Below the pieces are notes generated by a model. It saw only the letters and a list, made by a program, of their open reading frames with translations. It ran no database searches and was not told the origin of the DNA. A stretch of DNA of 15,138 nucleotides. It comes from a virus. Its lineage: Duplodnaviria > Heunggongvirae > Uroviricota > Caudoviricetes. Every line of letters begins with the position of its first letter. Position 1 is the first letter of the stretch. The stretch is taken from IMG/VR virus record IMGVR_UViG_3300010259_000015, positions 1 to 15,138 of that record; one strand, 5' to 3'. Position numbers and translations under genes: made by a program. Positions 1 to 15,138 of this stretch are shown piece after piece.

Positions 1-51
1 CCGATATCCGGCAGCTTGAGAACGCGCTGGCACGCTGTGCCAGCCAGGTAA
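1..51 (+). CDS. 3' end of a spanin-pair lysis gene (lysB or lysC), 5' truncated by window; reading frame 1, ends TAA 49-51
   Basis: Open frame from window edge reading PISGSLRTRWHAVPAR-stop; position immediately upstream of R matches the P2 lysB/lysC overlapped spanin pair. Which frame is lysB and which is lysC is not resolved. Confidence 0.35.
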   Translation, partial: PISGSLRTRWHAVPAR

Positions 52-119
52 AAATGATTAAACACTGTCAGGACGAAAACGATGCTCAAACCCGACAGCC
101 TGCGCAGGGCGCTGACTGA
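3..119 (+). CDS. 3' end of the second spanin-pair lysis gene (lysB or lysC), 5' truncated; frame 3, ends TGA 117-119, overlapping the R start
   Basis: Open frame from window edge reading ...DIRQLENALARCASQVKMIKHCQDENDAQTRQPAQGAD-stop; overlaps R start (82) by 38 nt, as expected for the P2 overlapped Rz/Rz1-type architecture. Confidence 0.4.
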   Translation, partial: DIRQLENALARCASQVKMIKHCQDENDAQTRQPAQGAD

Positions 120-549
120 TGCCGTCACGGTGCTGAAAACCAGTCCCGAGATGCTGCGGATATTCGTGGATAACGGGAGTATTGCCTCCACACTGGCGAC
201 GTCGTTGTCATTCGAAAAGCGTTACACGCTCAATGTGATTGTGACCGACTTTACCGGTGATTTTGACCTGCTCATTGTGCCGGTGCTGGCGTGGCTGCGG
301 GAAAATCAGCCCGACATCATGACCACTGACGAAGGCCAGAAAAAAGGCTTCACATTTTATGCAGACATCAACAATGACAGCAGCTTTGATATCAGTATCA
401 GCCTGATGCTGACCGAGCGCACGCTGGTCAGTGAGGTTGACGGTGCGCTGCATGTGAAGAATATCCCGGAACCTCCGCCGCCGGAGCCGGTCACCCGCCC
501 GATGGAGCTGTATATCAATGGCGAACTGGTGAGTAAGTGGGATGAATGA
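82..549 (+). CDS. R: Tail completion protein R
   Basis: 155-aa ORF, ATG start; sequence and length match P2 gpR as recalled; stop overlaps S start (ATGAATGA), indicating translational coupling. Confidence 0.9.
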   Translation: MLKPDSLRRALTDAVTVLKTSPEMLRIFVDNGSIASTLATSLSFEKRYTLNVIVTDFTGDFDLLIVPVLAWLRENQPDIMTTDEGQKKGFTFYADINNDSSFDISISLMLTERTLVSEVDGALHVKNIPEPPPPEPVTRPMELYINGELVSKWDE

Positions 550-994
550 GTTTAAGCGTTTTGAAGACCGGCTGACCGGGCTGATTGAATCGCTGTCACC
601 GTCAGGGCGTCGGCGACTGAGCGCCGAACTGGCGAAACGTCTGCGTCAGAGTCAGCAGCGTCGGGTGATGGCACAGAAAGCCCCGGACGGCACCCCCTAC
701 GCGCCACGTCAGCAGCAGAGCGCCAGAAAAAAGACCGGTCGCGTTAAGCGAAAAATGTTTGCGAAACTTATCACCAGTCGTTTTTTGCATATCCGCGCCA
801 GCCCGGAACAGGCATCAATGGAATTTTACGGCGGGAAGTCGCCGAAAATCGCCAGTGTGCATCAGTTCGGTCTGTCGGAAGAAACCCGGAAAGACGGTAA
901 GAAAATTGATTATCCGGCGCGTCCTCTGCTCGGCTTTACCGGTGAGGATGTGCAGATGATTGAAGAGATTATCCTGGCTCACCTTGAGCGTTAG
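542..994 (+). CDS. S: Tail completion / virion morphogenesis protein S
   Basis: 150-aa ORF directly following R with an 8-nt overlap; length and position match P2 gpS. Confidence 0.9.
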   Translation: MNEFKRFEDRLTGLIESLSPSGRRRLSAELAKRLRQSQQRRVMAQKAPDGTPYAPRQQQSARKKTGRVKRKMFAKLITSRFLHIRASPEQASMEFYGGKSPKIASVHQFGLSEETRKDGKKIDYPARPLLGFTGEDVQMIEEIILAHLER

Positions 995-1023
995 TTTTAT
1001 CCAGGCAGAGGCTGATGCGCAAT

Positions 1024-1060
1024 TAAACATTGAGCGGCCATGCTGGTCGCTCAATGTTTA
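1024..1060. terminator. Perfect 13-bp inverted repeat (TAAACATTGAGCG / CGCTCAATGTTTA, 11-nt loop) between convergent genes S and the minus-strand cargo gene; putative bidirectional terminator or protein-binding palindrome
   Basis: Arms 1024-1036 and 1048-1060 are exact reverse complements; located in the 71-bp gap between the stop codons of two convergent ORFs. No clear T-run on either side, so intrinsic-terminator function is uncertain. Confidence 0.45.
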
Positions 1061-1065
1061 GAGGT

Positions 1066-1851
1066 TTATGAGTGATTTTTATTTGATGCTTTGTATTCTA
1101 CAACCTTCTTATTGGCGTAAAGGAATTTTGTATATGACAGGAATATAACCAGACCTGAAATGAAATAGATGAGGGATATTATTAATAATGCTTTTTTTTG
1201 GCTGTTATTATCTTTAATCTCCTGACTTAACCATTCCGAGTCCTCCTCGTTTAGCTGTAAGAGCTTATTGCAGGCGATCTCAGGAAGTGTGTCTTTTATA
1301 AATACGTTTCGTAGCCTCTTGCAATCGGCAAGGCTATAAGTTTTATTGAATTCAACTGTTTTATTGTTGAAGGATAAAAGAACTTTGTCACTATAAACAT
1401 AGTACATCATATTTTTATATGGTATGCCTATGGCATCTCTTACTATAGCGGATTGTTTGTTGTGTATATAACATGCGAAGAGAATATAAATAATGCTGGA
1501 CAGAATTACAATTATTGTTTTAATTATGTGTGGTGGTTTTGTTATGTCACCCCAGAAGCGAGTAAGAAAAAAATACGATGTTTTTAGTTTTCCATCAATC
1601 AGCCCCTGCTGTATCATTCTCACATCTTCGATGCCTGATACATTGATTCCGTTAATTATTTTAAATAGTTGAATGTCGCGCCATTTTTTGTCGAGCATTT
1701 TTAACTTTCTGTCTGAATACTCAAAATTGAAATGATGTGCAATAAACCTCATAAGATTACTTTTACCAAAGGTAATAAATGTTAATGCTATTAATAAAAA
1801 TAGATACAAAGAGATAAACCACCGCGCATTAGTCACATTATCACTGAACAT
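1066..1851 (-). CDS. AT-rich cargo (moron) gene encoding a 261-aa predicted three-helix membrane protein of unknown function, at the S/V (orf30) variable locus
   Basis: ATG start at 1851 (minus) preceded by a strong Shine-Dalgarno (GAGGAG, 6-nt spacer); TAA stop at 1066-1068. Strongly AT-rich compared with flanking phage genes; three hydrophobic stretches (approx. residues 11-29, 108-128, 226-248); antisense to the late operons. Confidence 0.75.
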   Translation of the reverse strand: MFSDNVTNARWFISLYLFLLIALTFITFGKSNLMRFIAHHFNFEYSDRKLKMLDKKWRDIQLFKIINGINVSGIEDVRMIQQGLIDGKLKTSYFFLTRFWGDITKPPHIIKTIIVILSSIIYILFACYIHNKQSAIVRDAIGIPYKNMMYYVYSDKVLLSFNNKTVEFNKTYSLADCKRLRNVFIKDTLPEIACNKLLQLNEEDSEWLSQEIKDNNSQKKALLIISLIYFISGLVIFLSYTKFLYANKKVVEYKASNKNHS

Positions 1852-1866
1852 TACGCTCTCCTCGAA

Positions 1867-1887
1867 TGTTGTATGGTCGTTCTACAA
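1867..1887 (+). promoter_or_regulatory. Candidate Ogr-dependent late promoter element upstream of V (TGTTGT-N11-ACAA dyad)
   Basis: TTGT(1869-1872)...ACAA(1884-1887) is a perfect dyad; resembles the TGT-N12-ACA activator site of P2/P4 late promoters (my spacing count is 11); lies about 50-65 bp upstream of the V start with an AT-rich TATATAT stretch at 1911-1917. Confidence 0.45.
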
Positions 1888-1934
1888 ATGAATCCAGATA
1901 GCATAACTTTTATATATTGTGCAATCTCACACGC

Positions 1935-2570
1935 ATGAACACTCTCGCAAATATTCAGGAACTCGCGCGCGCACTGCGCAACATGATTCGTACCGGCCTT
2001 GTCGTCGAAACCAACCTTAAAGCCGGTCGCTGCCGTGTGCAGACCGGTGGCATGTGCACTGACTGGCTTCAGTGGCTGACCCATCGTGCCGGACGTTCGC
2101 GCACATGGTGGGCACCTTCCGTGGGGGAACAGGTGCTGATTCTGGCTGTGGGCGGTGAACTCGACACGGCGTTCGTTCTGCCGGGGATTTATTCCGGCGA
2201 TAACCCCGCGCCGTCTGCGTCGGCGGATGCCCTGCATATCCGTTTCCCTGACGGGGCGGTGATTGAGTATGAACCCGAAACCAGTGCACTCACGGTAAGC
2301 GGAATTAAAACGGCCAGCGTGACGGCTTCTGATTCTGTTACTGCCACGGTGCCGGTGGTCATGGTGAAAGCATCAACCCGCATCACCCTGGACACACCGG
2401 AGGTGGTTTGCACCAACAGGCTGATTACCGGCACGCTGGAAGTGCAGAAGGGCGGGACGATGCGCGGCAACATTGAACACACCGGCGGTGAACTCTCATC
2501 AAACGGTAAGGTACTGCATACCCATAAACACCCCGGCGACAGCGGCGGCACAACCGGGAGCCCTCTATGA
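1935..2570 (+). CDS. V: Baseplate assembly protein V (spike)
   Basis: ORF track begins at a TTG (1917), but the ATG at 1935 gives MNTLANIQELARAL... and a 211-aa product, matching P2 gpV; stop overlaps W start (ATGA). Confidence 0.88.
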   Translation: MNTLANIQELARALRNMIRTGLVVETNLKAGRCRVQTGGMCTDWLQWLTHRAGRSRTWWAPSVGEQVLILAVGGELDTAFVLPGIYSGDNPAPSASADALHIRFPDGAVIEYEPETSALTVSGIKTASVTASDSVTATVPVVMVKASTRITLDTPEVVCTNRLITGTLEVQKGGTMRGNIEHTGGELSSNGKVLHTHKHPGDSGGTTGSPL

Positions 2571-2914
2571 CAGCGCGTTATCTCGGAATGAATCGCAGTG
2601 ATGGCCTGACGGTCACTGACCTTGAGCATATCAGCCAGAGTATCGGCGATATCCTGCGCACACCGGTCGGCTCACGGGTGATGCGTCGTGATTACGGCTC
2701 GTTGCTGGCGTCAATGATTGACCAGCCGCAGACCCCGGCGCTTGAGTTGCAGATTAAGGTCGCCTGTTACATGGCGGTGCTGAAATGGGAACCCCGCGTC
2801 ACGCTGTCATCTGTCACCACGGCGCGCAGTTTTGACGGGCGAATGACGGTCACGTTAACCGGCCAGCACAACGACACCGGCCAGCCACTTTCGTTAACCA
2901 TCCCTGTGAGTTGA
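2567..2914 (+). CDS. W: Baseplate assembly protein W (gp25-like)
   Basis: 115-aa ORF, 4-nt overlap with V; length and order match P2 gpW. Confidence 0.9.
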   Translation: MTARYLGMNRSDGLTVTDLEHISQSIGDILRTPVGSRVMRRDYGSLLASMIDQPQTPALELQIKVACYMAVLKWEPRVTLSSVTTARSFDGRMTVTLTGQHNDTGQPLSLTIPVS

Positions 2915-2918
2915 AACC

Positions 2919-3827
2919 ATGCCGATTATCGACCTGAACCAGCTACCCGCACCGGATGTGGTCGAGGAGCTGGACTTTGAAACCATTCTCGCCGAACGCA
3001 AGGCGACACTGATTTCCCTTTACCCGGAAGACCAGCAGGAGGCGGTCGCCCGTACCCTGACGCTGGAATCTGAGCCTCTCGTCAAACTGCTGGAGGAAAA
3101 TGCTTATCGTGAGCTTATCTGGCGTCAGCGTGTGAATGAGGCCGCACGGGCGGTAATGCTGGCCTGTGCCGCCGGTAATGACCTTGATGTGATTGGTGCC
3201 AATTACAACACCACGCGCCTGATTATCACCCCGGCAGATGATTCGACCCTCCCGCCGACACCGGCAGTGATGGAATCTGACACGGATTATCGTCTGCGTA
3301 TTCAGCAGGCGTTTGAAGGTTTAAGCGTTGCCGGGTCGGTGGGTGCCTATCAGTATCATGGTCGCAGTGCCGACGGGCGTGTCGCGGATATCTCTGTCAC
3401 CAGTCCATCTCCGGCCTGTGTCACCATCTCTGTGCTGTCACGTGAAAATAACGGTGTCGCATCCGAAGACCTGCTGGCGGTGGTGCGTAACGCCCTTAAT
3501 GGCGAGGACGTCAGGCCGGTGGCCGACCGCGTGACCGTGCAGTCTGCCGCCATCGTTGAATACCAGATAAACGCCACGCTTTACCTTTACCCTGGTCCCG
3601 AAAGCGAACCCATCCGCGCTGCTGCCGTGAAAAAACTGGAAGCGTACATCACGGCACAGCACCGGCTGGGGCGCGACATCCGTCTGTCTGCCATTTATGC
3701 CGCTTTGCATGTGGAAGGCGTGCAGCGTGTCGAACTGGCTGCACCGCTGGCCGATATCGTGCTTAACAGCACGCAGGCGTCTTTCTGTACCGAATACCGC
3801 GTCGTGACCGGAGGCTCGGATGAGTGA
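2919..3827 (+). CDS. J: Baseplate assembly protein J
   Basis: 302-aa ORF; length and order match P2 gpJ; overlaps I start by 8 nt. Confidence 0.9.
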   Translation: MPIIDLNQLPAPDVVEELDFETILAERKATLISLYPEDQQEAVARTLTLESEPLVKLLEENAYRELIWRQRVNEAARAVMLACAAGNDLDVIGANYNTTRLIITPADDSTLPPTPAVMESDTDYRLRIQQAFEGLSVAGSVGAYQYHGRSADGRVADISVTSPSPACVTISVLSRENNGVASEDLLAVVRNALNGEDVRPVADRVTVQSAAIVEYQINATLYLYPGPESEPIRAAAVKKLEAYITAQHRLGRDIRLSAIYAALHVEGVQRVELAAPLADIVLNSTQASFCTEYRVVTGGSDE

Positions 3828-4350
3828 TTCGCGACTGCTGCCGACCGGCTCATCACCGCTTGAAGTTGCTGCCGCAAAAGCCTGTGCGGAAATTGAAAAA
3901 ACACCGGTCAGTATTCGTGAGCTGTGGAACCCGGACACCTGCCCGGCAAATCTGCTGCCGTGGCTGGCGTGGGCGTTTTCGGTCGACAGGTGGGATGAAA
4001 AGTGGCCGGAAGCGACAAAACGCGCCGTTATCCGCGATGCCTATTTCATCCACTGTCATAAAGGCACTATCGGCGCAATCCGGCGTGTGGTGGAGCCGCT
4101 AGGCTATCTCATCAACGTGACGGAGTGGTGGGAAAACAGTGACCCGCCCGGCACTTTCCGGCTTGATATTGGTGTACTGGAAAGCGGTATCACAGAGGCA
4201 ATGTATCAGGAAATGGAACGGCTGATTGCCGATGCCAAACCTGCAAGCCGTCACCTTATTGGTCTGAACATTACCCGGGACATTCCCGGCTACCTGTTCG
4301 CCGGTGGTGTGGCTTACGACGGCGATGTAATTACGGTTTACCCCGGATAA
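3820..4350 (+). CDS. I: Baseplate protein I (tail fibre attachment)
   Basis: 176-aa ORF; length and order match P2 gpI. Confidence 0.88.
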   Translation: MSDSRLLPTGSSPLEVAAAKACAEIEKTPVSIRELWNPDTCPANLLPWLAWAFSVDRWDEKWPEATKRAVIRDAYFIHCHKGTIGAIRRVVEPLGYLINVTEWWENSDPPGTFRLDIGVLESGITEAMYQEMERLIADAKPASRHLIGLNITRDIPGYLFAGGVAYDGDVITVYPG

Positions 4351-4360
4351 GTGAGGAAGA

Positions 4361-6358
4361 ATGAGCACAAAATTCAGAACCGTTATCACCACTGCCGGTG
4401 CAGCAAAGCTGGCAGCGGCAACCGCGCCGGGAGGGCGGAAGGTCAACATTACCACGATGGCCGTCGGGGATGGCGGTGGTAAATTGCTTGTCCCGGATGC
4501 CGGACAGACCGGGCTTATCCATGAAGTCTGGCGACATGCGCTGAACAAAATCAGCCAGGACAAACGAAACAGTAATTATATTATCGCAGAGCTGGTTATT
4601 CCGCCGGAGGTGGGCGGTTTCTGGATGCGAGAGCTTGGCCTGTACGATGATGCGGGAACGTTAATTGCCGTGGCGAACATGGCCGAAAGTTATAAACCTG
4701 CCCTTGCCGAAGGCTCAGGGCGTTCGCAGACCTGCCGCATGGTCATCATCGTCAGCAGTGTGGCCTCAGTGGAGCTGACCATTGACACCACAACGGTGAT
4801 GGCGACGCAGGATTACGTTGATGACAAAATTGCAGAGCATGAACAGTCACGACGTCACCCGGACGCCTCGCTGACCGCAAAAGGTTTTACTCAGTTAAGC
4901 AATGCGACCAACAGCACGTCTGAAACACTGGCCGCAACGCCGAAAGCGGTAAAGGCCGCCTATGACCTGGCTAACGGGAAATATACTGCGCAGGATGCCA
5001 CCACCGCGCGAAAAGGTCTTGTCCAGCTCAGTAGTGCCACCAACAGCACGTCTGAAACGCTCGCCGCAACACCAAAAGCGGTAAAGGCCGCGTATGACCT
5101 TGCTAACGGGAAATACACTGCACAGGACGCCACCACAGCGCGAAAAGGTCTTGTCCAGCTCAGTAGCGTCACCAACAGCGATTCTGAAACGCTTGCGGCA
5201 ACGCCAAAGGCGGTAAAGGTCGCGTATGACCTTGCTAACGGGAAATACACTGCACAGGATGCCACCACAGCGCGAAAAGGGCTTGTTCAGCTCAGTAGCG
5301 CCACCAACAGTGATTCGGAAACGCTGGCCGCAACACCAAAAGCGGTGAAGTCTGCCTATGACAATGCTGAAAAACGTCTTCAGAAAGATCAGAACGGTGC
5401 GGATATCCCTGATAAAAGATTATTCCTGCGCAATATTGGAGCAACAAATTCAACAACCATGTCTTTTAGTGGTGGTACAGGATGGTTCAGGCTGGCAACT
5501 GTAACCATGCCACAGGCCAGTTCCGTGGTTTACATAAGCCTGATTGGTGGTGCTGGATATAATGTTAACTCCCCTATGCAGGCTGGTATATCTGAACTTG
5601 TTCTTCGTGCGGGAAATGGAAATCCAAAAGGTCTTACTGGTGCGTTATGGCGACGGACCTCGGTTGGATTTACTAATTTTGCATGGGTGAATACATCCGG
5701 TGATACCTATGACATTTATGTAGAAATAGGTAATTACGCCACAGGTGTTAATATCCAGTGGGATTATTCAAAGGATGCAACTGTACAAATTCATACATCA
5801 CCAACTTATACAGCGAATAAACCAACAGGCCTGACAGATGGAACTGTATATGTAATTTACAGTTCGCACATTAAACCGACTGCTGCTGATGTTGGGGCGT
5901 TGTCGTTATCTGGAGGTCAATTGAATGGTGCACTGGGCATTGGAACATCCAGTGCTCTTGGCGGTAACTCGATTGTTTTGGGTGATAATGACACGGGCTT
6001 TAAACAAAATGGCGACGGTAATCTGGATGTTTATGCTAATAACGTTCATGTTATGCGCTTTGTCTCCGGTAGCATTCAAAGTAATAAAACCATAAATATT
6101 ACGGGGCGTGTTAATCCCACAGATTACGGTAACTTTGATTCCCGCTATGTCCGGGATGTCCGGCTTGGTGGTGCTGCCACATACAAACCTGCGAACAATG
6201 GCATGACATGGACACATCAGGCACCGTCCGGGTGTGTATATTCCGGCATTATTGTTCAGGATACCGGCTCAAACTCTGCCGATAACATTGGTGGCGTATA
6301 TTACAGACCGGTTCAGAAATACATTAACGGGACATGGTATAACGTGGCGCAGGTATAA
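4361..6358 (+). CDS. H: Tail fibre protein H (mosaic; conserved N-terminal anchor, repeat-containing shaft, variable distal domain, conserved C-terminal tip)
   Basis: 665-aa ORF with SD GAGGAAG upstream; N-terminus MSTKFRTVITTAGAAKLAAATAPGG... and C-terminus ...YRPVQKYINGTWYNVAQV match the P2 H termini as recalled; followed 3 nt later by G. Confidence 0.9.
   Translation: MSTKFRTVITTAGAAKLAAATAPGGRKVNITTMAVGDGGGKLLVPDAGQTGLIHEVWRHALNKISQDKRNSNYIIAELVIPPEVGGFWMRELGLYDDAGTLIAVANMAESYKPALAEGSGRSQTCRMVIIVSSVASVELTIDTTTVMATQDYVDDKIAEHEQSRRHPDASLTAKGFTQLSNATNSTSETLAATPKAVKAAYDLANGKYTAQDATTARKGLVQLSSATNSTSETLAATPKAVKAAYDLANGKYTAQDATTARKGLVQLSSVTNSDSETLAATPKAVKVAYDLANGKYTAQDATTARKGLVQLSSATNSDSETLAATPKAVKSAYDNAEKRLQKDQNGADIPDKRLFLRNIGATNSTTMSFSGGTGWFRLATVTMPQASSVVYISLIGGAGYNVNSPMQAGISELVLRAGNGNPKGLTGALWRRTSVGFTNFAWVNTSGDTYDIYVEIGNYATGVNIQWDYSKDATVQIHTSPTYTANKPTGLTDGTVYVIYSSHIKPTAADVGALSLSGGQLNGALGIGTSSALGGNSIVLGDNDTGFKQNGDGNLDVYANNVHVMRFVSGSIQSNKTINITGRVNPTDYGNFDSRYVRDVRLGGAATYKPANNGMTWTHQAPSGCVYSGIIVQDTGSNSADNIGGVYYRPVQKYINGTWYNVAQV
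4880..5365 (+). repeat. In-frame 132-bp (44-aa) tandem repeat, about 3.6 copies, within H shaft region
   Basis: Repeat starts at 4880, 5012, 5144 and 5276 (period exactly 132 nt); peptide unit KGLVQLSSATNSTSETLAATPKAVKAAYDLANGKYTAQDATTAR with a few substitutions per copy; fourth copy diverges after about 30 aa. Confidence 0.9.
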
Positions 6359-6361
6359 TTT

Positions 6362-6889
6362 ATGCAGCATTTGATAAATATAACGGTGGGTAATCCAAAA
6401 ACGGTTGAACAATATCAATTGACAAAGGGCTTTGATGTTGTCTGGTTTTTTTCAGAAGATGGTAAGAACTGGTACGAAGAACAAAAGTATTTTGCTGATG
6501 ACACGATAAAAATAGCGTACGACAAAGATAATATTATCCGCTATGTGGAAAAGGATGTGACAGCTATCAGACCAGATGGATTAAGTGTTGTTGAAGTGCC
6601 GGATATTACCGCTAACCGACGGGCGGACATTTCAGGGAACTGGATGTTTAAAGACGGCACAGTGATTAAACGAATTTATACGGCGGAGGAATTGCAGCAG
6701 CAGGCAGAAAATCGGAAAGCCAGACTTCTTGCAGATGCTGAATCCGTGATTTTGCCGCTGGAGCGTGCTGTCAGGCTGAATATGGCAACAGATGAGGAAC
6801 ACAGCCGACTGGAGGCTTGGGAACGCTATAGCGTTCTGGTCAGTCGTGTGGATCCTGCAAATCCTGAATGGCCGGAAATGCCGCAATAA
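6362..6889 (+). CDS. G: Tail fibre assembly chaperone G
   Basis: 175-aa ORF immediately after H; C-terminus ...[13 protein letters not shown] is typical of P2-type tail fibre assembly proteins. Confidence 0.88.
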
Positions 6890-7267
6890 GTTGTATGAGC
6901 TCTGGTGGGAGCTTACATATCTATGGCGCAGAGTAAAGCCTAATCTGACAGTTCGCTCTGTGCCAGAAGCAGACGTTGCGAACATCGAGGTGTATTAATC
7001 AACGGGGAGCTGGTCACAACTATTCGGTTTATAAACATTTTTTTCGCTTTTCTGCATTAGAGACTATTGCATTAACTGGCTAAACTATGGATGATTATTG
7101 GTGTTAGGTTGCCAATGAATTAAGGATTAACTTCTGAACTCTCTGGTTAATCTAAAAGGAATATATGTGTATCATTTTACTTTGGCTGATAATTGAGAAC
7201 AGGCTGTCAACCTATAAATTAGAAAGGTTAAATTAACTGTGTTTTCTTGGATTTACTAAGGATGAAT

Positions 7268-7888
7268 ATGGCTAAGCCTGAAATTAAATATGACAATCCT
7301 GAATTGGATGTAAATTATGATTATGTCGGAATTGTTGACGGTTTAAGTTGTGACGACAGGAAAGAATTTGGCATCACAACTGAGCTGGGAAATTTGCTGA
7401 GAAGTGCGCAATTACCTGTAAAAGAGGCGCTAGTAAATACTAAGCAGGAGCTTCTTGATGCGTTAAGCACATTCCTTAAAGATGCTATGAATGGTCAGCG
7501 TTTCATGCTCCATTTTGTAGCTCATGGAAACGAAAAAGGAATACAAATTGGTACTGACTTTGTGACTTGGGATATTTTACGTCCGCATTTGCAAGAAATC
7601 AATGTAGCAACGGAACGAACACTACTTTTGAATATGAGTACGTGTAAAGGTCTTCATGGAGTTAAGATTGTCGGTGGGAATGGTGAGTATCCTTTTTTTG
7701 GTTTAATTGGTGCGAAAGATGATTTATATGTGATTGATGCGCTAAATGCAAATAAAATAATGTATTGCAAGTGGCTTGATAACCTACCAGTTCAAAAGAT
7801 TGTTCCCGAGACAAATGCGGAACTTGGTAAGGACGTTTTGTTTAATATTTCATCTGAAGGGTTTAGGAAATTAACTAACCCTGAGTGA
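7268..7888 (+). CDS. AT-rich cargo gene at the G/FI (Z/fun) hotspot: ~206-aa protein with caspase-like (clan CD cysteine peptidase) His/Cys dyad motifs; function unknown, candidate anti-phage/exclusion factor
   Basis: ORF track starts at a TTG (7247); the ATG at 7268 follows an AAGGA Shine-Dalgarno (7257-7261) with a 6-nt spacer (an ATG at 7262 is also possible). Motifs hydrophobic strand + HG (FMLHFVAHGNEKGIQIGTD) and, 40 residues later, hydrophobic strand + C-x-G (TLLLNMSTCKG), resembling caspase SHG...GIxYGTDG and QACxG signatures. Strongly AT-rich island. Confidence 0.7.
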   Translation: MAKPEIKYDNPELDVNYDYVGIVDGLSCDDRKEFGITTELGNLLRSAQLPVKEALVNTKQELLDALSTFLKDAMNGQRFMLHFVAHGNEKGIQIGTDFVTWDILRPHLQEINVATERTLLLNMSTCKGLHGVKIVGGNGEYPFFGLIGAKDDLYVIDALNANKIMYCKWLDNLPVQKIVPETNAELGKDVLFNISSEGFRKLTNPE

Positions 7889-8073
7889 CACTTTTTCTTT
7901 CACTCATAATAATTATCAAATAGTGGATGGATTTGATGGAAATTAAGTACTTAGTCTGGTGGGATGTGTGTAAGATTAACTTCCGCTCCTCGCCCAAAGC
8001 AGACTGTCAGATTTGATAGTGTTTCGGCTATGTAAATAGTCAGTCGGAAAATGAGTTTGTACAAATCAGGACA

Positions 8074-8100
8074 GGCGGGCGAATTGCCCGCCTTTTCTTT
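8074..8100 (+). terminator. Rho-independent terminator downstream of the cargo gene / V-operon
   Basis: GC-rich hairpin GGCGGGC-gaatt-GCCCGCC (8074-8092) followed by the T-run TTTTCTTT (8093-8100). Confidence 0.8.
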
Positions 8101-8103
8101 ATC

Positions 8104-8124
8104 TGTTGTTTCATCCCCTGACCA
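8104..8124 (+). promoter_or_regulatory. Candidate Ogr-dependent late promoter element upstream of FI (TGTTGT-N11-ACCA)
   Basis: Same TGTTGT hexamer as upstream of V, followed 11 nt later by ACCA; sits just after the terminator and about 75-95 bp upstream of the FI start; SD GGAG at 8186-8189. Confidence 0.4.
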
Positions 8125-8197
8125 GCCAGGACAAATAGCATCTCATGCCCTGCACAACTGAAAATACCACTCACCCATTAACCACGGAGTTAAACGG

Positions 8198-9388
8198 ATG
8201 AGTGACTATCATCACGGCGTGCAGGTGCTGGAGATTAACGACGGCACCCGCGTCATTTCCACCGTATCCACGGCCATTGTCGGCATGGTCTGCACGGCCA
8301 GCGATGCGGATGCGGAAACCTTCCCCCTCAATAAACCGGTGCTGATTACCAATGTGCAGAGCGCAATTGCAAAGGCCGGTAAAAAAGGCACGCTGGCGGC
8401 GTCGTTACAGGCCATCGCAGACCAGTCAAAACCGGTCACCGTTGTTGTGCGCGTGGAAGACGGCACCGGCGACGACGAAGAAACGAAACTCGCGCAGACC
8501 GTTTCCAATATCATCGGCACCACCGACGAAAACGGTCAGTACACCGGACTGAAAGCCCTGCTGGCGGCGGAGTCGGTAACCGGTGTTAAACCGCGTATTC
8601 TCGGCGTGCCGGGACTGGATACCAAAGAGGTGGCTGTTGCACTGGCATCAGTCTGTCAGAAGCTGCGCGCTTTCGGGTATATCAGCGCATGGGGCTGTAA
8701 AACCATTTCTGAGGTGAAAGCCTACCGCCAGAATTTCAGCCAGCGTGAGCTGATGGTCATCTGGCCGGATTTCCTCGCATGGGATACGGTCACCAGTACC
8801 ACCGCCACCGCGTATGCCACCGCCCGTGCGCTGGGGCTGCGCGCTAAAATCGACCAGGAGCAGGGCTGGCATAAAACGCTGTCCAATGTCGGGGTGAACG
8901 GTGTTACCGGCATCAGCGCATCTGTATTCTGGGATTTGCAGGAGTCCGGCACCGATGCTGACCTGCTTAACGAGTCAGGTGTCACTACGCTGATTCGCCG
9001 TGACGGTTTCCGCTTCTGGGGTAACCGTACCTGCTCTGATGACCCGCTGTTCCTCTTTGAAAACTACACCCGCACCGCGCAGGTGCTGGCCGACACGATG
9101 GCTGAGGCGCACATGTGGGCGGTGGACAAGCCCATCACCGCAACGCTGATTCGCGACATCGTTGACGGCATCAATGCCAAATTCCGTGAGCTGAAAACAA
9201 ACGGCTATATCGTGGATGCGACCTGCTGGTTCAGCGAAGAATCCAACGATGCGGAAACCCTCAAGGCCGGAAAACTGTATATCGACTACGACTATACACC
9301 GGTGCCTCCTCTTGAAAACCTGACCCTGCGCCAGCGTATTACCGATAAATACCTGGCAAATCTGGTCACCTCGGTTAACAGCAATTAA
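8198..9388 (+). CDS. FI: Contractile tail sheath protein FI
   Basis: 396-aa ORF; length and order match P2 gpFI; SD GGAG 8 nt upstream. Confidence 0.92.
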   Translation: MSDYHHGVQVLEINDGTRVISTVSTAIVGMVCTASDADAETFPLNKPVLITNVQSAIAKAGKKGTLAASLQAIADQSKPVTVVVRVEDGTGDDEETKLAQTVSNIIGTTDENGQYTGLKALLAAESVTGVKPRILGVPGLDTKEVAVALASVCQKLRAFGYISAWGCKTISEVKAYRQNFSQRELMVIWPDFLAWDTVTSTTATAYATARALGLRAKIDQEQGWHKTLSNVGVNGVTGISASVFWDLQESGTDADLLNESGVTTLIRRDGFRFWGNRTCSDDPLFLFENYTRTAQVLADTMAEAHMWAVDKPITATLIRDIVDGINAKFRELKTNGYIVDATCWFSEESNDAETLKAGKLYIDYDYTPVPPLENLTLRQRITDKYLANLVTSVNSN

Positions 9389-9400
9389 GGAGCCTGACCG

Positions 9401-9919
9401 ATGGCAATGCCGCGCAAACTCAAGTTAATGAACGTCTTTCTGAACGGCTACAGCTATCAGGGCGTTGCAAAGTCCGTCACGCTGCCAAAACTGACCCGTA
9501 AGCTTGAAAACTATCGCGGTGCGGGGATGAACGGCAGCGCACCGGTAGACCTCGGCCTTGATGACGATGCGCTGTCAATGGAGTGGTCGCTCGGGGGCTT
9601 CCCGGATTCGGTTATCTGGGAGCTTTACGCAGCAACCGGTGTGGATGCCGTGCCGATTCGTTTTGCAGGCTCTTACCAGCGCGACGATACCGGCGAAACG
9701 GTGGCCGTCGAGGTGGTCATGCGTGGACGTCAGAAAGAAATCGACACCGGCGAGGGTAAACAGGGAGAAGACACCGAGTCGAAAATCTCCGTGGTCTGCA
9801 CCTATTTCCGGCTGACGATGGACGGTAAGGAGCTGGTCGAAATCGACACCATCAACATGATTGAGAAGGTGAACGGCGTCGACCGGCTGGAGCAACACCG
9901 CCGCAATATCGGCCTGTGA
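9401..9919 (+). CDS. FII: Tail tube protein FII
   Basis: 172-aa ORF 12 nt after FI with SD AAGGAG; length and order match P2 gpFII. Confidence 0.92.
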   Translation: MAMPRKLKLMNVFLNGYSYQGVAKSVTLPKLTRKLENYRGAGMNGSAPVDLGLDDDALSMEWSLGGFPDSVIWELYAATGVDAVPIRFAGSYQRDDTGETVAVEVVMRGRQKEIDTGEGKQGEDTESKISVVCTYFRLTMDGKELVEIDTINMIEKVNGVDRLEQHRRNIGL

Positions 9920-9975
9920 TTTTCATCCGGTCAGCCAGGCTGACCGGTTAACCCCGATTCAGAAGTGAGAAAACC

Positions 9976-10251
9976 ATGAACAAAGAAAATGTCATTACCC
10001 TGGACAATCCGGTCAAACGTGGTGAGCAGGTCATCGAACAGGTCACGCTGATGAAACCCAATGCCGGGACGCTGCGCGGTGTCAGTCTGGCTGCGGTTGC
10101 AAACTCCGAAGTCGATGCACTGATTAAGGTGCTGCCGCGCATGACGGCACCGATGCTGACCGAGCAGGAAGTCGCCGCGCTGGAACTGCCTGACCTTGTG
10201 GCGCTGGCCGGTAAGGTGGTCGGTTTTTTGTCGCCGAACTCGGTGCAGTGA
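9976..10251 (+). CDS. E: Tail assembly chaperone E
   Basis: 91-aa ORF between the tail tube and tape measure genes; length matches P2 gpE. Confidence 0.88.
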   Translation: MNKENVITLDNPVKRGEQVIEQVTLMKPNAGTLRGVSLAAVANSEVDALIKVLPRMTAPMLTEQEVAALELPDLVALAGKVVGFLSPNSVQ

Positions 10252-10403
10252 CGTTTCCGAAAAATCTGTCGGTCGATGACCTGATGGCGGATGTGGCAGT
10301 GATATTTCACTGGCCGCCATCAGAACTGTATCCCATGAGCCTGACCGAACTCATCACATGGCGCGAAAAGGCGCTCAGGCGAAGCGGAAACACGAATGAG
10401 TAA
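9976..10403 (+). CDS. E': Tail assembly chaperone E+E' fusion produced by programmed -1 frameshift at the TTTTTTG slippery heptamer (10224-10230)
   Basis: Six T then G at 10224-10230 near the end of E; the -1 frame stays open to a TAA at 10401-10403, giving about 142 aa, the size of P2 E+E'; the extension overlaps the T start, as is conserved in tail chaperone/tape-measure modules. Confidence 0.75.
10224..10230 (+). other. Slippery heptamer TTTTTTG (programmed -1 ribosomal frameshift site)
   Basis: Direct sequence observation within the last codons of E; the -1 frame downstream is open for about 58 codons. Confidence 0.75.
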
Positions 10404-12843
10404 CAATGTAAAATTACAGGTATTGCTCAGGGCTGTTGACCAGGCATCCCGCCCGTTTAAATCCATCCGCACAGCGAGTAAGTCGCTGTCGGGGGATATC
10501 CGGGAAACACAAAAATCACTGCGCGAGCTGAATGGTCACGCATCCCGTATTGAGGGATTTCGCAAGACCAGCGCACAGCTTGCCGTGACTGGTCATGCAC
10601 TTGAAAAGGCACGGCAGGAAGCCGAAGCACTTGCCACACAGTTTAAAAACACTGAACGTCCAACCCGTGCTCAGGCGAAAGTGCTGGAATCCGCAAAGCG
10701 TGCGGCGGAGGACTTACAGGCGAAATATAACCGCCTGACGGATTCCGTTAAGCGCCAGCAGCGGGAACTGGCCGCTGTGGGAATTAATACCCGCAATCTT
10801 GCACATGATGAGCAGGGACTGAAAAATCGTATCAGTGAAACCACCGTACAGCTTAACCGTCAGCGCGACGCACTGGCGCGTGTCAGTGCACAACAGGCAA
10901 AACTTAACGCAGTCAGACAGCGTTATCAGGCCGGAAAGGAACTGGCCGGAAATATGGCCTCAGTGGGCGCTGCCGGTGTGGGGATTGCGGCGGCGGGAAC
11001 GATGGCCGGAGTTAAGTTGCTGATGCCCGGTTATGAGTTTGCGCAGAAAAACTCAGAATTGCAGGCCGTGCTCGGAGTGGCAAAAGACTCCGCCGAAATG
11101 GCCGCGCTCCGCAAGCAGGCGCGCCAGCTCGGCGACAATACCGCAGCCTCGGCGGATGATGCGGCCGGTGCGCAGATTATCATTGCGAAAGCGGGTGGAG
11201 ATGCTGCGGCTATTCAGGCGGCAACGCCGGTCACGCTGAATATGGCGCTGGCGAACCGTCGCACGATGGAAGAAAACGCCGCCCTGCTGATGGGGATGAA
11301 ATCCGCCTTTCAGCTTTCAAACGATAAGGTCGCTCATATCGGGGATGTTCTCTCCATGACGATGAACAAAACCGCCGCCGATTTTGACGGCATGAGCGAT
11401 GCGCTGACCTATGCCGCACCTGTGGCAAAAAATGCCGGTGTCAGTATTGAAGAAACCGCCGCAATGGTCGGGGCGCTGCATGACGCAAAAATTACTGGTT
11501 CAATGGCGGGGACGGGAAGCCGTGCCGTGTTAAGCCGCCTGCAGGCACCGACGGGAAAAGCATGGGATGCACTGAAAGAGCTTGGTGTGAAAACCTCAGA
11601 CAGCAAGGGAAACACCCGACCAGTATTTACCATTCTGAAAGAAATGCAGGCCAGTTTTGAGAAAAACCGGCTTGGTACTGCCCAGCAGGCTGAATACATG
11701 AAAACCATTTTCGGGGAGGAGGCCAGCTCAGCCGCCGCTGTGCTGATGACTGCCGCCTCAACCGGAAAGCTGGACAAACTGACCGCTGCGTTTAAAGCCT
11801 CAGACGGGAAGACCGCAGAGCTGGTAAATATCATGCAGGACAACCTCGGCGGTGACTTTAAGGAGTTTCAGTCCGCTTATGAGGCGGTGGGGACTGACCT
11901 GTTTGACCAGCAGGAAGGCGCACTGCGTAAGCTCACGCAGACGGCCACAAAGTATGTGTTAAAACTCGACGGCTGGATACAGAAAAACAAATCACTGGCG
12001 TCAACCATTGGCCTCATTGCCGGTGGCGCGCTGGCGCTGACTGGCATCATCGGTGCCATTGGCCTCGTGGCCTGGCCGGTTATCACCGGCATCAATGCCA
12101 TCATCGCGGCAGCAGGCGCAATGGGGGCAATCTTCACGACGGTTGGCAGTGCCGTTATGACGGCCATCGGGGCGATTAGCTGGCCGGTTGTGGCCGTGGT
12201 GGCTGCAATTGTCGCCGGGGCGTTGCTTATCCGTAAATACTGGGAGCCTGTCAGCGCATTCTTCGGCGGTGTGGTGGAAGGGCTGAAAGCGGCATTTGCG
12301 CCGGTGGGAGAACTGTTCACGCCACTTAAGCCGGTGTTTGACTGGCTGGGTGAAAAGTTACAGGCTGCGTGGCAGTGGTTTAAAAACCTGATTGCACCGG
12401 TCAAAGCCACCCGGGATACCCTGAACCGTTGCCGTGACACGGGCGTCATGTTCGGGCAGGCACTGGCTGACGCGCTGATGCTGCCGCTTAATGCGTTCAA
12501 CAAATTACGCAGCGGCATTGACTGGGTACTGGAAAAGCTCGGGGTCATCAACAAAGAGTCAGACACACTTGACCAGACCGCCGCCAGAACTCATGCCGCC
12601 ACGTATGGCACCGGTGGTTATATTCCGGCGACCAGCTCTTATGCAGGCTATCAGGCTTATCTGCCGGTCACGGCACCGGCTGGCCGCTCTTATGTGGACC
12701 AGAGTAAAAACGAATATCACATCAGCCTGACGGGTGGTACTGAGCCGGGGACACAGCTTGACCGCCAGTTACAGGATGCGCTCGAAAAATACGAGCGGGA
12801 TAAACGTGCGCGCGCCCGTGCCAGCATGATGCATGACGGTTAA
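10396..12843 (+). CDS. T: Tail tape measure protein T
   Basis: 815-aa ORF; Ala/Gln-rich coiled-coil-like N-terminal half, long hydrophobic Gly/Ala/Ile-rich segment (about residues 530-610) typical of tape measure proteins; length matches P2 gpT. Confidence 0.92.
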   Translation: MSNNVKLQVLLRAVDQASRPFKSIRTASKSLSGDIRETQKSLRELNGHASRIEGFRKTSAQLAVTGHALEKARQEAEALATQFKNTERPTRAQAKVLESAKRAAEDLQAKYNRLTDSVKRQQRELAAVGINTRNLAHDEQGLKNRISETTVQLNRQRDALARVSAQQAKLNAVRQRYQAGKELAGNMASVGAAGVGIAAAGTMAGVKLLMPGYEFAQKNSELQAVLGVAKDSAEMAALRKQARQLGDNTAASADDAAGAQIIIAKAGGDAAAIQAATPVTLNMALANRRTMEENAALLMGMKSAFQLSNDKVAHIGDVLSMTMNKTAADFDGMSDALTYAAPVAKNAGVSIEETAAMVGALHDAKITGSMAGTGSRAVLSRLQAPTGKAWDALKELGVKTSDSKGNTRPVFTILKEMQASFEKNRLGTAQQAEYMKTIFGEEASSAAAVLMTAASTGKLDKLTAAFKASDGKTAELVNIMQDNLGGDFKEFQSAYEAVGTDLFDQQEGALRKLTQTATKYVLKLDGWIQKNKSLASTIGLIAGGALALTGIIGAIGLVAWPVITGINAIIAAAGAMGAIFTTVGSAVMTAIGAISWPVVAVVAAIVAGALLIRKYWEPVSAFFGGVVEGLKAAFAPVGELFTPLKPVFDWLGEKLQAAWQWFKNLIAPVKATRDTLNRCRDTGVMFGQALADALMLPLNAFNKLRSGIDWVLEKLGVINKESDTLDQTAARTHAATYGTGGYIPATSSYAGYQAYLPVTAPAGRSYVDQSKNEYHISLTGGTEPGTQLDRQLQDALEKYERDKRARARASMMHDG

Positions 12844-12857
12844 GGAGGTGACGAAAA

Positions 12858-13337
12858 ATGATGCTCGCGTTAGGTATGTTTGTTTTTATGCGCCAGACGC
12901 TGCCACACCAGACCATGCAGCGTGAATCAGATTATCGCTGGCCGTCAAATTCCCGTATCGGCAAACGGGATGCCTTTCAGTTTCTCGGTGTGGGTGAGGA
13001 AAACATCACGCTTGCCGGTGTGCTTTATCCTGAACTGACCGGCGGAAAGCTGACGATGACCACGCTCAGACTGATGGCAGAGGAAGGCCGGGCGTGGCCG
13101 TTGCTGGATGGCACCGGCATGATTTACGGCATGTATGTCATCAGCAGGGTGAGTGAAACAGGGTGTATTTTCTTTGCAGACGGCACACCCCGGAAAATTG
13201 ATTTTACGCTGTCACTCACCCGCGTTGACGAATCACTGGCCGCGCTTTATGGCGATATCGGTAAACAGGCGGAATCGCTCATCGGTAAGGCTGGCAGTAT
13301 GGCGACTAAATTCACAGGTATGACGGGGGCGGGATAA
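12858..13337 (+). CDS. U: Tail protein U
   Basis: 159-aa ORF with strong SD TAAGGAGGTG upstream; length and order match P2 gpU; stop overlaps D start (TAATG). Confidence 0.9.
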   Translation: MMLALGMFVFMRQTLPHQTMQRESDYRWPSNSRIGKRDAFQFLGVGEENITLAGVLYPELTGGKLTMTTLRLMAEEGRAWPLLDGTGMIYGMYVISRVSETGCIFFADGTPRKIDFTLSLTRVDESLAALYGDIGKQAESLIGKAGSMATKFTGMTGAG

Positions 13338-14500
13338 TGCTGGATGCACTGACATTTGATGCAGGCAGTACGCTGACGCCGGATTACATGCTGATGCTCG
13401 ACAGCAGGGATATTACCGGCAATATCAGCGACCGTCTGATGAGCATGACTCTGACGGATAACCGGGGCTTTGAGGCTGACCAGCTTGATATTGAACTGAA
13501 CGATGCCGACGGGCAGGTCGAACTGCCGGTTCGTGGCGCTGTCCTGACGGTGTATATCGGCTGGAAAGGTTTTGCCCTGGTATGCAAAGGGAAATTCACC
13601 GTTGATGAGGTAGAACACCGGGGCGCGCCGGATGTGGTCACCATCCGGGCCCGGAGTGCAGATTTTCGTGGCACGCTCAATTCCCGCCGTGAAGGCTCCT
13701 GGCATGACACCACGCTCGGTGCGATTGTTGAGGCGATAGCCTCCCGTAACAGGCTGGAAGCCAGTGTCGCTCCGTCACTGGCCGGAATTAAAATCCCGCA
13801 CATCGACCAGTCGCAGGAGTCTGATGCTAAATTCCTGACCCGTCTTGCTGAACGCAACGGCGGTGAGGTGTCGGTAAAAATGGGAAAACTGCTGTTTCTC
13901 AAAGCGGGGCAGGGGGTGACGGCCAGCGGTAAAAAAATCCCGCAGATTACCATCACCCGCAGCGACGGCGACCGCCATCATTTTGCGATTGCTGACCGTG
14001 GAGCCTATACCGGCGTAACGGCAAAGTGGTTACACACCAAAGACCCGAAGCCACAAAAGCTGAAGGTAAAACTGAAGCGCAAAAAGAAAGAGAAACACCT
14101 GCGCGCACTGGAGCACCCGAAAGCAAAACCGGTCACGCAGAAGAAAGCGCCAAAAGTACCGGAAGCGCGCGAAGGTGAATACATGGCCGGTGAGGCTGAC
14201 AACGTTTTTGCCCTGACTACGGTATATGCCACGAAAGCGCAGGCCATGCGCGCAGCTCAGGCGAAGTGGGATAAACTGCAACGGGGTGTGGCGGAGTTCT
14301 CCATCAGCCTGGCTACCGGTCGGGCAGATATTTACACGGAAACACCGGTCAGAGTGTCAGGCTTTAAGCGCGTCATAGACGAGCAGGACTGGACTATCAC
14401 TAAGGTGACACATTTTCTGAATAATAGCGGCTTCACGACGTCCTTGGAGCTTGAGGTCAGGCTTTCTGATGTGGAGTACGAAACAGAAGATGATGAGTGA
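13337..14500 (+). CDS. D: Tail protein D
   Basis: 387-aa ORF; length and order match P2 gpD; contains a Lys-rich low-complexity linker (about residues 235-280). Confidence 0.9.
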   Translation: MLDALTFDAGSTLTPDYMLMLDSRDITGNISDRLMSMTLTDNRGFEADQLDIELNDADGQVELPVRGAVLTVYIGWKGFALVCKGKFTVDEVEHRGAPDVVTIRARSADFRGTLNSRREGSWHDTTLGAIVEAIASRNRLEASVAPSLAGIKIPHIDQSQESDAKFLTRLAERNGGEVSVKMGKLLFLKAGQGVTASGKKIPQITITRSDGDRHHFAIADRGAYTGVTAKWLHTKDPKPQKLKVKLKRKKKEKHLRALEHPKAKPVTQKKAPKVPEAREGEYMAGEADNVFALTTVYATKAQAMRAAQAKWDKLQRGVAEFSISLATGRADIYTETPVRVSGFKRVIDEQDWTITKVTHFLNNSGFTTSLELEVRLSDVEYETEDDE

Positions 14501-14581
14501 TGTTTTTATTTTATCTATTTGTTTTATAAGGATAAATTAACTAAAATGGCACCATCAACAAAACCGGAAGAGGTGCTCGCG

Positions 14582-14800
14582 ATGTTTCATTGTCCTTTAT
14601 GCCAGCATGCCGCACATGCGCGTACAAGCCGCTATATCACTGACACGACAAAAGAGCGTTATCACCAGTGCCAGAACGTGAATTGCAGCGCCACGTTCAT
14701 CACTTATGAGTCGGTACAGCGATACATCGTGAAGCCGGGAGAAGTCCACGCCGTGAGGCCGCACCCGTTGCCGTCAGGGCAGCAAATTATGTGGATGTAA
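14582..14800 (+). CDS. ogr: Late-gene transcriptional activator Ogr (zinc-finger)
   Basis: ORF track begins at a TTG (14519), but the ATG at 14582 gives MFHCPLCQHAAHARTSRY...CQNVNCSATF... of 72 aa with CxxC...CxxxxC zinc-binding cysteines, matching P2 Ogr in size and N-terminus as recalled. Confidence 0.88.
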   Translation: MFHCPLCQHAAHARTSRYITDTTKERYHQCQNVNCSATFITYESVQRYIVKPGEVHAVRPHPLPSGQQIMWM

Positions 14801-14810
14801 TTACAAACAG

Positions 14811-14838
14811 AAAGCCCCTCAGTCGAGGGGCTTTTTTT
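14811..14838 (+). terminator. Rho-independent terminator after ogr
   Basis: Hairpin AGCCCCTC-agtc-GAGGGGCT (14813-14832) followed by a run of seven T (14832-14838). Confidence 0.85.
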
Positions 14839-14902
14839 GTCGATGTGGTCAATGTGTGGACGTGACCAGAAATAAATCCTTTTATTTCATTGAATTACGC
14901 GT

Positions 14903-14929
14903 AAAAAATAAGCCCGTGTAAGGGAGATT
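14903..14929. other. P2-type attachment core (attR) AAAAAATAAGCCCGTGTAAGGGAGATT; prophage/host junction
   Basis: Exact 27-mer that I recall as the P2 att core; lies 100 bp after ogr and coincides with the terminator hairpin and U-tail of cyaR on the opposite strand. Confidence 0.6.
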
Positions 14930-14989
14930 ACACAGGCTAAGGAGGTGGTTCCTGGTACAGCTAGCATTTTATGGGTTATGTTTTTCAGC
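14903..14989 (-). ncRNA. cyaR: CyaR (RyeE) Hfq-dependent sRNA, CRP-cAMP activated
   Basis: Minus-strand sequence GCTGAAAAACATAACCCATAAAATGCTAGCTGTACCAGGAACCACCTCCTTAGCCTGTGTAATCTCCCTTACACGGGCTTATTTTTT matches the E. coli CyaR sequence as recalled, including the conserved CCACCTCCTT anti-SD-like seed and the 3' terminator hairpin plus U-run. Confidence 0.8.
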
Positions 14990-15045
14990 GAAACGGATGA
15001 TAACCTTAATAAATGCAGCTGTATGTGATCGGTTTCTAAGAATTT
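14990..15045 (-). promoter_or_regulatory. cyaR promoter with class II CRP site (TGTGA-N6-TCTAA on + strand at 15024-15039)
   Basis: CRP half-site TCACA (minus strand) centred about 42 bp upstream of the inferred +1 at 14989; TATCAT-like -10 on the minus strand; consistent with the known CRP dependence of cyaR. Confidence 0.5.
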
Positions 15046-15073
15046 TCCATCCGGGAAAAATAATCGAAATTAA

Positions 15074-15136
15074 TCACTTACCGTGGGGATTACGCGTGGT
15101 TTCCCCGGAGAAATTACGCATCAGCAGCGCGTAATT
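15074..15136 (-). CDS. 3' end of a host gene upstream of cyaR (5' part beyond window); identity not determinable here
   Basis: Minus-strand frame open from the window edge to a TGA at 15074-15076 (reads ...NYALLMRNFSGETTRNPHGK-stop); only 21 codons visible. Confidence 0.25.
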   Translation of the reverse strand, partial: NYALLMRNFSGETTRNPHGK

Positions 15137-15138
15137 GA

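Follow-up and report, generated by a model that had tools for sequence, protein, structure and literature searches.

The window, that is, the whole 15,138-nucleotide stretch of viral DNA analysed here, consists for most of its length of P2-type late genes and ends, on the right, in a small RNA gene of the bacterial host and part of a neighbouring host protein gene, with a short sequence that belongs to both sides in between. Its features are these, the two elements of the P arm being candidates assigned by likeness to annotated P2.

1-14500, plus strand: P2-type late (tail) genes up to gpD (13337-14500), from Pfam and from annotated P2-like prophages, sited between yegR and yegQ, that match the window as a whole.
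14582-14800, plus strand: ogr, the late-gene activator and final prophage gene (Pfam Ogr_Delta, E = 1.1e-21; aligns to annotated P2 ogr).
14811-14835, no strand assigned: terminator hairpin of ogr and the F operon, the homologous position in P2 being annotated 'rho-independent terminator for ogr transcript and F operon'.
14840-14867, plus strand: putative Int arm-type site of the P arm, with the direct repeats TGTGGTCA and TGTGGACG (28/28 against the P2 feature 'protein_bind Int, P arm').
14871-14904, plus strand: predicted IHF-binding region of the P arm (by homology its position corresponds to that of 'protein_bind IHF' in P2).
14903-14929, plus strand: att core (O), 27 bp, which is also the final 27 nt of cyaR (exact unique match, identity with the P2 attP core, switch of homology at both edges).
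14903-14989, minus strand: cyaR (ryeE), small RNA gene, 87 nt (Rfam RF00112; identity with empty sites and K-12).
14911-14938, minus strand: CyaR intrinsic terminator hairpin, 11-bp stem and 6-nt loop (MFE fold and terminator scan).
14997-15039, minus strand: putative cyaR promoter, -10 hexamer and CRP-like site (pattern positions, assigned by eye; the same in empty sites).
15074-15138, minus strand: 3′ end of yegQ/trhP, the host gene flanking cyaR (translation ending in RNPHGK and the stop codon, identical to the annotated yegQ of CRE1493).

The small RNA gene aligns to all 85 positions of the Rfam model RF00112 (CyaR_RyeE), from 14991 to 14906 on the minus strand, at a score (100.7 bits, E = 1.5e-19) that exceeds the gathering score of 47. 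Its place beside yegQ/trhP is the conserved one for CyaR, and the extent of 87 nt given here rests on the K-12-type start, GCUGAAAAAC... The interval upstream of it, 14990-15045, is cyaR promoter region: the -10 hexamer at 14997-15002 reads ATGATA on the plus strand (TATCAT on the minus), and a putative CRP-like sequence, TGTGA-N6-TCTAA, picked out by eye at 15024-15039, has its centre at about -42.5. A generic sigma-70 scan found no -35/-10 pair at this promoter, which is to be expected of one that depends on an activator; for the dependence of CyaR on CRP there is the literature cited in PMC3333887.

In RNA coordinates the terminator hairpin takes up positions 52-79 and the U-tail, UAUUUUUU, positions 80-87 (14910-14903), together a probable Hfq-binding module to judge from its sequence. 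The 27-bp core, AAAAAATAAGCCCGTGTAAGGGAGATT on the plus strand and present only once within the window, corresponds to RNA positions 61-87 and thus holds 2 nt of the 5′ arm, the loop, the entire 3′ arm and the tail. An initial annotation of this DNA had equated the core with the terminator stem plus U-tail. That is accurate for the U-tail and for the 3′ half of the hairpin, only 14911-14929 of which falls within the core, but the 5′ stem arm has 9 nt more (14930-14938), which lie outside it, in host B′ DNA.

The same 27-mer is the annotated attP (24356-24382) of the P2 genome AF063097, at 27/27, in keeping with what had been proposed for it, and with up to 3 mismatches tolerated no match to it arose in 200 dinucleotide-preserving shuffles. 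Megablast of 14500-15138 against phage genomes returned 76 Peduovirus-type records. P2 itself aligns to window 14500-14929 (query 1-430) at 96.8% identity, ending exactly at the end of the 27-mer, and phage homology, comprising gpD, ogr and the P arm, ends at 14929. From the host side, with 14780-15138 as query, all but two of 5426 complete E. coli genomes (5424) match its right part; in 1219 of the 5424 (about 22%) 80% or more of the query is matched, and hence the ogr side too, and in the remaining genomes, which have no prophage here, the match begins at window 14903 or 14895. A five-way alignment of the window, P2 attP, the empty sites of CRE1493 and ATCC 25922, and the K-12 remnant leaves the core invariant, with the partners of its flanks switching at its edges: to the left the window tracks P2, to the right it tracks the host. 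What lies on the downstream side of the core is host cyaR, its promoter and yegQ/trhP, rather than a phage int region; in the P2 record the order is ogr terminator, Int P-arm site, IHF site, attP, and then the Cox sites, the Int P′ site and int.

With phage homology to the left, host homology to the right and breakpoints at 14929 and 14903, the region is almost certainly the ogr-proximal junction, attR (P-O-B′), of a P2-like prophage (Peduovirus) integrated in E. coli at cyaR, the site called locI. The earlier proposals of a right prophage junction, of a boundary inside the window and of cyaR as the host locus all stand, the last on the Rfam match and the neighbouring yegQ/trhP. For annotation the practical gain is that the right boundary of the prophage is fixed at 14903-14929 and the host locus has a name.

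The layout of the P arm agrees with such a junction, the presumed Int repeats (for which the consensus arm repeat is tgTGGaCa; PMC3448106) and a diverged, predicted IHF region following one another between the ogr terminator and the core. Across its 64 nt the arm matches P2 at 58 positions, all six differences being inside the 14871-14904 stretch, and the K-12 remnant at 63. In the terminator scan the ogr/F-operon hairpin was also scored on the minus strand (14834 to 14811).

Upstream, Pfam families in the late genes include Phage_GPD, Phage_base_V and Phage_spike, and the best whole-window match has 93% coverage and 96.5% identity. Two intervals depart from the late-gene theme. One, at 1066-1851 on the minus strand, between a 150-aa ORF (542-994) and gpV, is a 261-aa ORF that matches phrog_2407 (unknown function) over its full length (E = 2e-142), gave no significant Pfam match, and has at its position in relatives an annotated 'hypothetical protein'. 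It is probably accessory cargo, and its position is that of P2 orf30. The other is a variable 1.3-kb region, 6890-8197, flanked by the genes for tail-fibre assembly and for the sheath, where P2 has Z/fun. Its sole long ORF, 7247-7888 (213 aa, TTG start), has sub-threshold matches only (a caspase domain, E = 0.005, and phrog_38219, E = 4e-4). Relatives have other genes at the Z/fun position, e.g. 'lysogenic protein' and 'phage exclusion protein Lit', and this difference in content fits a defence or cargo hotspot.

The far end of the element, attL with int, is beyond the 15-kb window and was seen in two relatives, MS20649 and Z1322HEC0001. In the latter the interval from yegR to cyaR/yegQ is occupied by a complete P2-like prophage of about 34.7 kb; MS20649 (H26), which matches the junction at 100%, holds an internally deleted element of about 6 kb in which gene D and the sheath gene are truncated. 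On the int side of both there is a second copy of the core, followed by a P′ arm, TAGGGTGTCACCAGTAGGGGC..., identical to that of P2 (TAGGGTGTCACC...). This int-proximal copy at attL is a promoterless orphan of 27 bp.

Could the window's junction be that of a decayed remnant no longer able to excise, as with ogrK-D′ of K-12 or the 6-kb MS20649 element, where the junction anatomy is the same? Short remnants are included among the roughly 22% of complete E. coli genomes in which ogr-type DNA adjoins cyaR, K-12 and MS20649 both have one at this very place, and it is with the K-12 remnant that the P arm agrees so nearly. However, in the window the P2-type late genes run unbroken for about 14.9 kb, every one of the ORFs named here being full length (gpV, tail fibre, sheath, tube, tape measure, U, D and ogr), and complete prophages of about 34.7 kb that occupy this site are collinear with it, so that a remnant is unlikely.

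A second reading concerns the core itself, and part of the evidence on it lies in the host flank of the core. In E. coli the yegR-side flank of the core, at empty sites, at attL of lysogens and to the left of the K-12 remnant alike, reads TCGATGTGGTCAATGGAAGACGGTTACCAGAGATAGGGC--TTATGCAT; the sites are L002:2953-3000 (CRE1493), L004 (ATCC 25922), L005 at about 8510-8460 on the minus strand (MS20649 attL), L003:2447-2492 (K-12) and, outside E. coli proper, L027 at about 597-661 (MOD1-EC7003). The first 15 nt of this flank are identical to those that open the P2 Int P-arm site, with one Int arm-type repeat (TGTGGTCA) intact and the second degenerate, and 16 bp of the IHF region have been lost in the E. 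coli version. In Escherichia sp. MOD1-EC7003 the flank is an ungapped 64 nt that agrees with the window's P arm at 46/64 in the same register to the core, a score that none of 200,000 shuffles reached (maximum 34). E. ruysiae has neither yegR nor the fossil stretch. An 'empty' E. coli attB bearing a decayed P arm is, to go by these likenesses, very probably a fossil attR, the scar that an older P2-like prophage left behind. That the fossil arm is other than neutral, adding to the strong preference for this site or changing recombination of attL or attB, is speculative and rather improbable. (As cargo of the ancestral prophage yegR was considered on account of a strong phrog_21109 match, yet rejected, since tblastn found only two 'phage' records and both were prophage or remnant entries with host flank.)

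The left edge of the K-12 D′-ogrK remnant (L003:2481-2510) is inside a core copy, past core base 18, where aaaaaaataagcccgtgta is followed directly by gcagagttctcc (...AAGCCCGTGTA and then GCAGAG) and is thereby joined to a gene D fragment. Since this edge is within the core copy, the deletion that made the remnant began in the attL core, which suggests an aberrant event at attL. Possibly the deletion started at or near the Int crossover region, for which the position of the edge is only a hint.

The fossil arm shows that at least one older integration became fixed in E. coli, and it abuts the core directly. It is in this light that the core might be taken for phage DNA in origin, an ancient integration having swapped the ancestral cyaR terminator, with the 3′ end of the small RNA a captured phage sequence. 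A scan for the exact 26-mer in one genome per bacterial species, which gave 21 loci, is pertinent here. At 10 Kluyvera and 2 Enterobacter hormaechei loci the same core terminates cyaR with non-phage flanks, the downstream flank agreeing with the P arm at 10-22/64, which is background level. That cyaR ends in this way in Kluyvera and Enterobacter in the absence of P-arm similarity argues for the core being native cyaR sequence that was copied by the phage. As, moreover, the B arm of E. ruysiae is without the fossil and the 3′ arm within the core pairs with 5′-arm sequence found only in the host, capture from a phage is very improbable. As for chance resemblance between a P2-like core and cyaR, it is already refuted by the 27/27 match where none is expected, by breakpoints of homology precisely at the core edges, and by the doubling of the core, as attL and attR, in relatives.

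The scan also brought out divergent P2-like prophages at the same core, at L026:1994-2019 in Kluyvera intermedia and at L008:5349-5374, with P arms that agree with the window at 48-49/64, and from these the cyaR site is seen to be used across genera. (The L008 record is titled Escherichia coli and has a cyaR allele of Kluyvera type; it may be mislabelled or represent another species.)

The preferred reading remains attR of a P2-like prophage whose core is a copy of native cyaR sequence. The core, the breakpoints, the identity of cyaR and the phage derivation of the tip of its U-tail are read directly in the DNA; the recombination that would have joined them is modelled on the P2 family, and on P2 itself, a system known from experiment as well as from annotation. 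A P2-type tyrosine integrase, together with IHF, would recombine attP with the chromosomal attB, strand exchange presumably occurring within the 27 bp of identity common to the two. Its products would be attL (B-O-P′), beside int, and attR (P-O-B′), beside ogr, the shared core being the last 27 nt of an Hfq-dependent, CRP-controlled small RNA gene.

What does this do to CyaR? No base of the 87-nt cyaR differs among the window, two empty sites, K-12, E. ruysiae and two Enterobacter hormaechei genomes, and, as the phage holds an exact copy of the 27 bp, cyaR is complete and unchanged at the ogr-proximal junction. The initial annotation had likened the insertion to that of phages which enter the 3′ end of a tRNA gene and rebuild it, and the identity of cyaR in lysogen and empty sites (87/87) bears this out. 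It had further suggested that the terminator might be altered by substitutions in the phage-derived core; this does not apply here, where the core is 27/27 identical to the host's and the gene 87/87. With cyaR left intact by lysogeny, no regulatory consequence for control by CRP or by CyaR is to be assumed.

The terminator is formed jointly. The fold z-score is -2.7 at attR, as against -1.3 on the same strand of attP, from which it follows that the compact hairpin is present only where the core joins host B′ DNA. (A role for the core as terminator of int in attP or attL was considered and dropped, the hairpin being absent without the host 5′ arm, z = -1.3.)

Changes specific to lysogens are confined to the sequence just past the U-run and, in hosts with 7 A at this position on the plus strand, to the loss of one U. 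The lysogen MS20649 has the host run of 7 A at attL and the phage run of 6 A at attR; in a lysogen, then, the DNA at the very 3′ tip of cyaR comes physically from the phage. The phage had been credited with supplying the last 27 nt of the small RNA, which is right for the extreme end; 27 nt is an upper bound, though, because the point of crossover is unreadable within an identical core. The A-run, 14903-14908 in the window, is 6 long in 8/8 phage-joined junctions examined (P2, the window, K-12, MS20649, Z1322HEC0001, E. ruysiae, Kluyvera intermedia L026, and L008) and 6-8 long in native sites. By rough estimates from a 76-nt probe, identity bands and 40 evenly spaced records, the site is empty with 7 A in about 22% of E. 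coli genomes, empty with an allele shorter by 1 nt (6 A in the three that were read) in about 55%, and phage-joined in about 20%. Within the 55% class 16/22 sampled rows were exactly 1 nt short of the probe and 6/22 had further differences. On such shares at most a minority of integrations trim the U-run by one. Phage-joined cyaR alleles accordingly have their U-run fixed at 6 U and an altered context after the terminator.

That context would matter for transcripts that pass the terminator, read-through of which was about 41% in a double-terminator assay (PMC9765468). At an empty site such read-through would head towards yegR; in a lysogen or in K-12 it would enter the P arm and meet the ogr hairpin, which could then act as a back-stop before the transcript became antisense to ogr. 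The ogr/F-operon hairpin is some 70-90 nt downstream of the cyaR terminator.

At empty sites and attL (L005:8440-8500, plus strand) the host flank just past the cyaR U-tail, GGGCTTATGCAT, is an inverted repeat of the core sequence ATAAGCCC. On a modelled fold, an 8-bp stem could form in read-through transcripts between this downstream flank and the CyaR terminator's 3′ arm and tail. The phage-joined flank has a different palindrome, TTACGCGTAA.

P2-type integration at cyaR is already known and published. The 27-nt core, locI and the K-12 remnant are said to have been defined by Yu et al. in 1989 and by Barreiro and Haggard-Ljungquist in 1992. The E. coli W genome paper (Archer et al. 2011; PMC3032704) has 'cyaR RNA' among the insertion sites for P2 prophages, the occupants being Wphi2 (P2) in W, ogr-D′ in K-12 and P2*B in strain B, and E. 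coli ryeE appears as a known phage target in Bobay et al. 2013 (PMC3603311). A 2011 survey of P2-like integrases by P2 specialists places P2-type sites between genes and, more rarely, in non-tRNA genes, with no mention of cyaR (PMC3448106). Evidently the P2-integrase and small RNA literatures are not fully joined.

P2 itself shares with the window the 27-bp core, the presumed Int arm site (28/28), the 58/64 P arm, the order from ogr terminator through Int arm repeats and IHF region to the core, and a host flank of cyaR and then yegQ. The window phage is nevertheless not P2, from which it differs at 6/64 positions of the P arm and in its accessory gene regions. The D′-ogrK remnant of K-12 has a near-identical attR (P arm 63/64, core and cyaR identical); the difference is in what has been retained, a gene D fragment and ogrK only, as against about 14.9 kb of intact late genes in the window. 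Given this near-identity, CyaR as studied in K-12 is the lysogen-type allele, with a 6-U run and P-arm context downstream. The last bases of K-12 CyaR and everything beyond its terminator are P2-derived, and measurements of termination and read-through, the 41% (PMC9765468) among them, may not carry over unchanged to strains in which the site is empty.

Small RNA loci other than cyaR also serve as phage attachment sites, as with sdsR/ryeB in Salmonella (PMC3333887, PMC3603311) and rybB, an att site for P2-like prophages in E. coli W, B and Crooks (PMC3032704), though there the small RNA, the core and the specificity of the integrase are different. The broader parallel is with integration at the 3′ ends of tRNA and tmRNA genes, as by phage 186 at tRNA-Ile, HP1 at tRNA-Leu, and Fels-2 and SopEPhi at ssrA (PMC3448106). 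In common with these, a structured RNA gene shares its 3′ end with the core (positions 61-87 of 87 here), a phage-borne copy keeps the gene intact in the lysogen, and the target is conserved across genera. Unlike them, the cyaR target is the intrinsic terminator of an Hfq-binding small RNA, with no acceptor or T-arm, and the intact cyaR is at the junction distant from int. In the tRNA-linked islands of K-12, int adjoins the intact RNA gene. The locus is thus a clean textbook case of a small RNA terminator being used as tRNA 3′ ends are by other phages.
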